From assembly GCF_000027125.1 (NCBI RefSeq), contig NC_017626.1: 64,000 nt of DNA. One strand, written 5' to 3'. The notes beneath the pieces are model-generated. The model did no database searches. It was not told the origin of the DNA and was given only the letters and a program-made list of their open reading frames with translations. The DNA is from Escherichia coli 042 (lineage in GTDB: Bacteria; Pseudomonadota; Gammaproteobacteria; Enterobacterales; Enterobacteriaceae). Positions 14,420 to 14,942 of this stretch are shown one piece after another. The translations under genes and the position numbers were made by a program. The number at the start of each line of letters is the position of its first letter. Positions within the stretch are counted from its first letter, which is position 1.

Positions 14420-14635
14420 TTACTCTCCCCGTGCCGCCTTACGACGGTCCTCTCTGATTTTGAAATACAGGTTAGTCAGATATGTCAGCAGCCCAAACAG
14501 CAGACTCCCCAGCACGCCTATTGCCGCCCACTGAGACGGGGAAACCCTGTCCAGCAACTGCAGGAACCAGTAGCCCGTTCCCACCGCTGACGTGGTGTAT
14601 GACACACCTGTTGTGATTTTTTCCATCTGGTCCAT
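14420..14635 (-). CDS. pinholin (phage 21 S-like) with dual-start motif
   Basis: [10 protein letters not shown]...[50 protein letters not shown] closely resembles phage 21 S pinholin; ORF track extends upstream to 14740 but conserved start is Met at 14635. Confidence 0.8.
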
Positions 14636-14942
14636 ACCCCGTCTCCCGTTATCCGGAAGCTGACAACAATAAAAAAGCCACCAGTTAACTACTGATGGCT
14701 CTGATAACTCATGCAAGCGTCTCAGACGATCCACTGACACTACCGGTGAGTTTAACGATACCTTCCATTTGACTGGCTCACTTTTTATGATGATGCCGGT
14801 GCATTTATCTCCAGCACCAGACTTTCTATCTCAACGCCATACGTTGCATTTTTGGTAATATCCGTCAGCGTCAGTGCATTTAGTCCCACTGCCAGACTGT
14901 CCTTTATGGCCTGGAATGCCGGGCCAGTACGATGACGTAGTA

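Follow-up and report, generated by a model that had tools for sequence, protein, structure and literature searches.

The lysis cassette

In the window, i.e., the whole stretch of 64,000 nucleotides of Escherichia coli 042 that was analyzed, the interval 14420-14740 very probably corresponds to the S gene of the late lysis cassette of a lambdoid prophage. This cassette consists of S, ydfR, R and Rz/Rz1, and the antiterminator gene Q lies upstream. The features are the following:

17035..17856, minus strand: antiterminator Q gene (PF03589, E 2e-54)
14664..14702, minus strand: intrinsic terminator, a 12-bp hairpin with U-run (terminator scan, folding, compensatory changes)
14643..14659, minus strand: small predicted stem-loop with the SD of Met1 in its 3′ arm (folding)
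14636..14740, minus strand: spurious 35-codon extension of a 106-aa ORF, i.e., the 5′ leader of S (no SD, not conserved)
14420..14635, minus strand: S holin, long form (71 aa, MDQMEK...; PF04971, RefSeq WP_000372595.1)
14420..14626, minus strand: S holin, probable short form (68 aa, from Met4, which is Met39 of the 106-aa ORF; equivalent of S21-68 by alignment of Met4 with the S21-68 start)
14065..14415, minus strand: YdfR-family (DUF1327) gene, 116 aa (PF07041, E 2e-42)
13468..14001, minus strand: endolysin R, 177 aa, a T4-lysozyme-type muramidase with a SAR-like N-terminal domain at residues 7-24 (PF00959, E 1e-23)
13007..13471, minus strand: Rz i-spanin (PGAP coordinates; PF03245, E 7e-49; 'lysis protein' in PGAP)
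13069..13251, minus strand: Rz1 o-spanin lipoprotein, in the +1 frame of Rz (PF06085, E 2e-19)

Several complete E. coli genomes contain the 2.4-kb lysis stretch with 100% identity; of 5426 genomes, 5326 match some part of it. The RefSeq annotation was taken from one genome that is identical over the 2,401 nt compared. In this genome, a class II holin, a YdfR-family protein, a lysozyme, a 'lysis protein' (Rz) and an HNH endonuclease are annotated, as well as terminase, portal and capsid genes. Since the RefSeq neighbors are terminase, portal, capsid and lysis genes, the setting is the late region of a lambdoid prophage. This prophage may be defective, as the neighboring nanS-p remnant is a pseudogene.

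Both the cassette type and the exact holin sequence are already known, with proteins in RefSeq. The exact 71-aa holin sequence is present on at least 1000 contigs, and cassettes of this type in Stx phages have already been described as a predicted P21 S-family pinholin combined with a SAR endolysin (PMC8136144; PMC10462455). NCBIfam contains no model naming the holin, YdfR or the spanins; for R, it only gives a sub-threshold match to a GTA endolysin.

At the downstream end of the cassette, the GTG start of Rz, which has an SD of -8.4 kcal/mol, overlaps the stop codon of R. Rz has an N-terminal TMD with a mean KD of 2.09 and the Rz1 lipoprotein is embedded in its +1 frame. This is the organization of a two-component spanin. 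An HNH endonuclease gene (PF01844, E 2e-16) is located at 12614-12964 (-), between Rz and the small terminase subunit of the P27 family. HNH and terminase genes as neighbors are the usual pairing in HK97-like packaging modules.

The translation start of S

The longest ORF at this position starts with GTG, spans 14420..14740 (-) and encodes 106 aa. Its residues 36-39 read M-D-Q-M, and 71 aa remain from Met36 onward. The earlier note had considered this long frame probably not to begin at the real start, and this view holds. No SD suitable for GTG 14740 is present, as the best pairing upstream reaches -3.9 kcal/mol and lies at a distance of 18 nt. ATG 14635, in contrast, is preceded by GGGAG (14643-14647), which pairs with the anti-SD at -7.4 kcal/mol and leaves a spacer of 6-7 nt. 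For ATG 14626, the candidate SD is a weaker GGGGU, in a purine run ending 9 nt upstream. These are the RBS spacings before Met36 and Met39 that the earlier note had proposed to check.

To judge conservation, 160 related loci were collected from viral contigs. The 35-codon GTG extension is kept in only 23 of 152 related loci. In the remaining 129, there is no upstream in-frame start, the peptide is frameshifted by a 7-T variant of the U-run, or the sequence is unrelated. More generally, the sequence of these loci upstream of about -35 splits into many unrelated classes. RefSeq uses the 71-aa form, with a 216-nt CDS (WP_000372595.1, 'class II holin family protein').

It is extremely improbable that the 106-aa ORF is the real holin gene, as it is in some older GenBank annotations. 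The frame is open and the sequence has been deposited in four records, under the names 'putative prophage lysis protein' and 'EssD'. However, besides lacking an SD and being lost or frameshifted in most related loci, the extension contains a terminator, and the match to the Pfam family begins only at residue 40 of the long version. For these reasons, the 106-aa ORF was rejected as a real gene. A start at 14740 in combination with a conserved extension, the outcome that the earlier note had named as contradicting it, is not what is found, because the N-terminal extension is not conserved. Translation thus appears to start at ATG 14635, and ATG 14626 is probably used as well, which would give a product of 68 aa. 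A practical point is that calling this holin as the long ORF of 106 aa, as is still found in some GenBank records, is an error, since the ORF extends across a transcription terminator.

RNA structures in the S leader

The terminator at 14664-14702 has a dG of -17 kcal/mol (z -5.79), and none of 200 shuffled sequences folds as well. A hairpin followed by a T-run precedes S in nearly all upstream variants of the 933W type and in several of the S21 type, while the stem sequences differ. In an alignment of 18 variants, six pairs of the stem show compensatory changes.

Downstream of the terminator, the SD of ATG 14635 is part of the predicted stem-loop CUUCCG-GAUAA-CGGGAG. With a dG of -8.7 kcal/mol and a z of -2.2, this hairpin folds only modestly better than shuffled sequences. 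In the 933W clade its stem is invariant and its loop is variable, and a comparable hairpin that includes the SD, but differs in sequence, occurs in the S21 clade. The location of the SD in the 3′ arm of this small hairpin would limit the use of ATG 14635. The stem-loop resembles an sdi-type start-site regulator, and together with the conserved double ATG it fits a regulated two-start gene. Rfam gives no match in the S leader.

The sdi stem-loop is known from S of phage lambda, which produces S105 and S107. Both genes have two close starts, and upstream of these a stem-loop takes in the SD belonging to the first one; in the case of the present gene, this structure is predicted. Apart from this, the systems differ. 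Lambda S is an unrelated class I holin with three TMDs that forms large holes, it is combined with a soluble endolysin, and its N-terminal extension is a basic Met-Lys.

S, a probable pinholin of the phage 21 family

The 71-aa protein matches the Pfam family PF04971, 'Bacteriophage P21 holin S', over residues 5-67 (E 9e-33; 112.5 bits, with a threshold of 26 bits). The earlier note had claimed a pinholin-family holin that closely matches S21. The family assignment is confirmed; the closeness is not, as the holin is 77% identical to S21-71, over 71/71 residues and without gaps, and the close match is S of phage 933W, with 97% identity. To both EssQ and EssD of K-12 the identity is 79%. The S21-71 sequence used in this comparison occurs verbatim in the protein collection, and it fits the residues and motifs quoted in papers, i.e., D2/K3/I4, YWFLQW, LDQVSPSQ and V43.

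Two stretches of the protein contain no charges, namely residues 7-28 (50% G/A/S/T, mean KD 0.71) and residues 31-58, and the C-terminus that follows is charged. The values for composition and hydropathy are nearly equal to those of S21. With about 70 aa, a very short N-terminus, two TMDs of which the first is weakly hydrophobic, and a charged tail, it has the layout of a class II holin. Judged by its sequence, the protein would therefore be a phage-21-type pinholin. The homology of the holin, in combination with the exclusive pairing of such holins with endolysins that have a hydrophobic N-terminus (see below), points to small holes of about 2 nm, which would be too small for a folded endolysin to pass.

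The YdfR gene between holin and endolysin

The earlier note had paired the holin with a SAR endolysin. Both are indeed encoded in the same cassette, but they are not adjacent, as the 116-aa YdfR/DUF1327 gene lies between them (14065..14415). Within its first 77 residues, the protein shares 79% identity with K-12 YdfR. The SD of ydfR (-8.5 kcal/mol, 5-nt spacer) is embedded in the 3′ end of S. Most cassettes with a 177-aa endolysin contain ydfR, whereas none of 22 full-length (165-aa) R21-type cassettes does. The ORFs of this family vary in length from 72 to 330 aa at the loci L003-L162. YdfR of K-12 is reported to bind RNase E's catalytic domain and to co-purify with RNA (PMC13232886, 2026).

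Downstream of ydfR, a 63-nt A/U-rich gap (14002-14064) separates this gene from R. The start codon of R has no recognizable SD, the best pairing in the 25 nt upstream being +0.3 kcal/mol. The expression level of R is consequently uncertain.

R is a probable SAR endolysin of the RrrQ/933W type

R is 91% identical to R of phage 933W and 93% identical to RrrQ of K-12. Its relationship to R21 (PDB 3hde/3hdf) is distant (E 2.8e-16 for 3hde, over the catalytic domain), and the best match in the PDB is 7m5i. An alignment to R21, as suggested in the earlier note, therefore only returns a remote relative: R falls outside the R21-type subfamily and belongs to a separate 177-aa type together with RrrQ and 933W R.

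The residues E35, D44 and T50 form the triad of the lysozyme motif E-X8-D/C-X5-T. The N-terminus contains two basic residues, K4 and R6, followed by 18 uncharged residues of which 50% are G/A/S/T. The mean KD of this segment is 1.6, vs. 2.1 for the TMD of Rz. A SAR N-terminus is described as one to three basic residues and, behind these, a segment that is weakly hydrophobic, free of charges and rich in Gly/Ala/Ser/Thr (PMC9239132), and R conforms to this description. In addition, 933W R has been used as a SAR endolysin by the Young laboratory, with constructs that trace to the Kuty 2011 dissertation, and it is one of three 'other SAR endolysins' of which the release is enhanced by the Mu releasin (PMC9239132). 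The genomic context agrees with this. An endolysin was found in 139 related loci with an S21-family holin, and in each of these it has a hydrophobic N-terminus and is either the 165-aa R21 or the 177-aa type. No soluble-type endolysin is among them. Holins of the S21 type starting with MKSM occur with both endolysin types. On the basis of homology and context, the identification of R as a SAR endolysin, as made in the earlier note, is well supported.

Alternatively, R could have an ordinary cleavable Sec signal peptide and be secreted as a soluble periplasmic enzyme instead of being tethered to the membrane. The hydrophobic stretch is only 18 residues long, and the small residues at its end, AVGAPAP (in relatives AGASAP), resemble signal-peptidase sites, with AVG|A as a candidate. 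This is nevertheless very unlikely. Going by the sequence and by what is generally known of signal peptidase I, two of this allele's three candidate sites have a proline at +1, which blocks cleavage. A free periplasmic lysozyme would moreover lyse the cells without control by the holin, and the R gene is always found with pinholin-family holins. Lastly, the 91%-identical 933W R is the protein that was handled as a SAR endolysin responding to the Mu releasin (PMC9239132).

R has eight cysteines, at positions 52, 74, 109, 118, 136, 150, 157 and 172. As none of these is located in the SAR segment, activation through disulfide isomerization involving a cysteine of the SAR domain, as in P1 Lyz, is impossible. 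Periplasmic disulfides in the mature protein are plausible.

Comparison with known lysis cassettes

The cassette shares features with several known systems, without being identical to any of them. Firstly, it can be compared with S-R-Rz/Rz1 of 933W (and H-19B). Besides the similar holin and endolysin, these have the M-x-Q-M N-terminus of the holin and the way in which Rz and Rz1 are embedded in common with the present cassette, and the cassette is located downstream of Q, tRNA genes and nanS-p in both cases. In 933W, however, residue 2 of the holin is Tyr instead of Asp, and S and R are only 4 nt apart, with the SD of R inside the end of S, whereas ydfR intervenes here. The present prophage furthermore lacks stx genes and has no ant insertion between R and Rz, and its nanS-p is cut to a DUF1737 remnant.

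Secondly, the gene order corresponds to that of essQ-ydfR-rrrQ-rzpQ/rzoQ in the Qin prophage of K-12, i.e., a holin, YdfR, a 177-aa lysozyme and the spanins. RrrQ and the first part of YdfR are similar. EssQ reaches only 79% identity and begins with a basic MKSM N-terminus. The C-terminus of YdfR differs as well (103 aa in Qin vs. 116 aa here), and ydfR overlaps rrrQ by 4 nt in Qin, in contrast to the 63-nt gap devoid of an SD in the present cassette.

Thirdly, S21/R21 of phage 21 has in common with the cassette a PF04971 holin with two TMDs, a weakly hydrophobic TMD1 and the positions of Met1 and Met4, an SD inside a predicted hairpin, and a paired endolysin with a hydrophobic N-terminus. The differences concern the extension of the long holin form, which is a basic Met-Lys-Ser in phage 21 and an acidic Met-Asp-Gln here, and the endolysin (177 aa here vs. 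165 aa for R21). In addition, R21 directly overlaps S21 in related loci, without an intervening ydfR.

A conserved dual start without a basic residue

The methionines Met1 and Met4 align exactly with the starts of S21-71 and S21-68. Both ATGs (14635 and 14626), with two codons in between, are kept in essentially all related loci (about 160) and proteins. The two intervening codons vary and can encode KS, KF, YR, LR, HR, (M)K, YQ, DQ, NQ, HQ or FQ. Since both ATGs are kept while the codons between them vary, they are most simply explained as two start codons.

In principle, a single AUG could be used, giving either the 71-aa or the 68-aa product, with the other ATG being kept as an ordinary residue or because it belongs to the leader RNA. 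The spacing of the one strong SD, GGGAG, suits Met1, and the GGGGU candidate of Met4 is weak. A small hairpin, GGU-AUGN-ACC, is moreover predicted to carry the variable nucleotide of codon 2 in its loop, and constraints on the RNA could thus explain the conservation pattern. We consider such a single-product gene unlikely, because the ATG pair is kept in every clade although the two codons between change freely, and because both products, of 71 and 68 aa, are documented for S21 (PMC13056207).

The use of two starts does not imply that the products have opposite functions. The antiholin character of S21-71 has been ascribed to its extra basic Lys, which retards the exit of TMD1 (PMC13056207; PMC4749879), and one survey counts a basic residue between the two start codons as part of the dual-start motif (PMC9671378). 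In the present holin, the added residues are Asp-Gln. No basic residue (Lys or Arg) is found between the starts and the net charge of the extension is -1. The holins of the 933W clade have the sequence M-[Y/D/N/H/F]-Q-M throughout, again with no basic residue, in contrast to the other clades, which have K2 or R3. No paper discussing the missing basic residue in Stx-type holins was found in a literature search.

Among 47 unique alleles of S from the 933W clade, the first position of codon 2 (14632; T/G/A, giving Tyr, Asp or Asn) is the only tri-allelic nonsynonymous site, and the other variation in the gene mostly affects third positions of codons. Hardly any change is seen in the two ATGs, in codon 3 or in the 6 nt that precede ATG1.

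The earlier note had read the MDQM motif as a holin/antiholin dual start. This claim is partly supported: the double start is genuinely conserved, at the S21 positions and throughout the family, but the holin/antiholin reading fails on one defining feature, the basic residue. Antiholin function of the long form is doubtful because Asp-Gln replaces the residue credited with it. A nanopore-screen preprint reports for S21-68 that the inhibitory effect of K3 is offset by the negative D2 (bioRxiv 10.1101/2021.04.20.440580), and for this reason the added Asp should, if anything, favor TMD1 exit and activation. With an extra Met-Asp-Gln and no positive charge gained, the long form is predicted to be a weak antiholin or none.

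A classical dual start, with the 71-aa product as an antiholin by which triggering of the 68-aa holin is delayed, in the manner of S21-71 and S21-68, is possible but doubtful. Consistent with it are the exact S21 positions of Met1 and Met4 in all clades, the SD-sequestering hairpin, which is like that of the S21 clade, and the invariance of codons 1, 3 and 4 among the 47 unique alleles. By analogy with lambda S107, the longer N-terminus in the cytoplasm could also here lose its formyl group and then have a free amino group. The charge of the extension argues in the opposite direction, as the Lys held responsible in S21-71 is missing and an Asp should speed up TMD1 exit and not retard it, and so does residue 2, which is freely polymorphic (Y/D/N/H/F) in the 933W clade.

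As a tentative proposal, the 933W-type clade has kept the two starts and lost the charge-based antiholin control, resulting in a dual start without an antiholin. If this is true, the long isoform may trigger as fast as the short one or faster, and residue 2 (Tyr, Asp, Asn, His or Phe) would tune the timing of lysis. The clade that lacks the charge defining an antiholin is the one that dominates Shiga-toxin phages, where the timing of lysis and the release of toxin are linked. If the long form is no inhibitor, phage 21 should not serve as the template when lysis timing of Stx phages is modeled. In any case, it is unsafe to label every Met-x-x-Met holin as a holin/antiholin pair.

It was also considered whether YdfR might replace charge-based antiholin control. 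As a strict link this was rejected, because YdfR occurs together with both MKSM and MxQM holins and is absent from 933W, which has an MYQM holin.

Late transcription and the proposed course of lysis

Right after the stop codon of Q, a pR′-like promoter candidate is present, TTGATT-16-TAAATT (17029-17002, -). About 50 nt past this candidate, the terminator scan detects a GC-rich hairpin with a U-run (16954-16935, -). The region 16930-17034 (-) thus has a pR′/tR′-like arrangement. A weak Rfam match to Trp_leader after Q (25 bits, below threshold) is probably just the terminator.

The explanation in which we have high confidence combines Q-driven transcription, translation from ATG 14635/14626, a pinholin and a SAR endolysin, with weak or no antiholin activity. 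The late promoter just downstream of Q, approximately 2.4 kb upstream of the cassette, would drive the lysis genes. The late transcripts would have to cross several intrinsic terminators, the last of which is located 30-65 nt before S. Because these terminators stand between promoter and S, Q-modified polymerase would be needed and the lysis genes would be expressed only by this form of the enzyme. By homology with the known pinholins, the weakly hydrophobic TMD1 would leave the membrane, after which TMD2 would form small holes that depolarize it. R, which would be exported by Sec and tethered to the membrane, would be released by the depolarization and degrade the cell wall. Rz/Rz1 would then disrupt the outer membrane, again as in homologous systems.

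Neighboring genes

Between Q and the lysis genes, several other elements are present. The region 14785-15146 (-) contains a 67-aa DUF1737 ORF and an adjoining 53-aa ORF, the former of which is annotated by PGAP as a C-terminally truncated pseudogene. In Stx phages, the 645-aa sialate O-acetylesterase NanS-p has DUF1737 as its N-terminal domain (PMC10462455), so the DUF1737 ORF looks like a remnant of nanS-p. Further upstream, on the opposite strand, the ORF 15392-15727 (+) is the gene of the anti-adapter IraM according to the annotation of the identical genome. It has no Pfam match and looks like a moron. At 15753-15942 (-), the STnc100 sRNA (RF02076) is found with 132 bits, compared to a gathering score of 47 (E 5.5e-30), and the match ends at a terminator-like hairpin (15783-15762).

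A 117-aa ORF at 16175-16528 has no family match in Pfam or NCBIfam. Downstream of Q, two tRNA genes are located at 16639-16715 and 16816-16891 (-), encoding an Arg-UCU tRNA and a tRNA with a CAT anticodon (Met according to ARAGORN). A genome with a 100% identical lysis region has three tRNAs, at a different offset from IraM. From this number and offset it follows that the segment from Q to IraM differs between the two genomes.

On the other side of Q, in the early-right region, genes of a RusA resolvase (17871-18227) and of a DUF968/YdfU-family protein (18240-19289) are found, as in prophages of the Qin/DLP12 type. Lastly, an ORF for a toxin of the Hok/Gef family is found at 20402-20614 (-) (PF01848, E 3e-23), with a listed start upstream of the annotated start of hokD.
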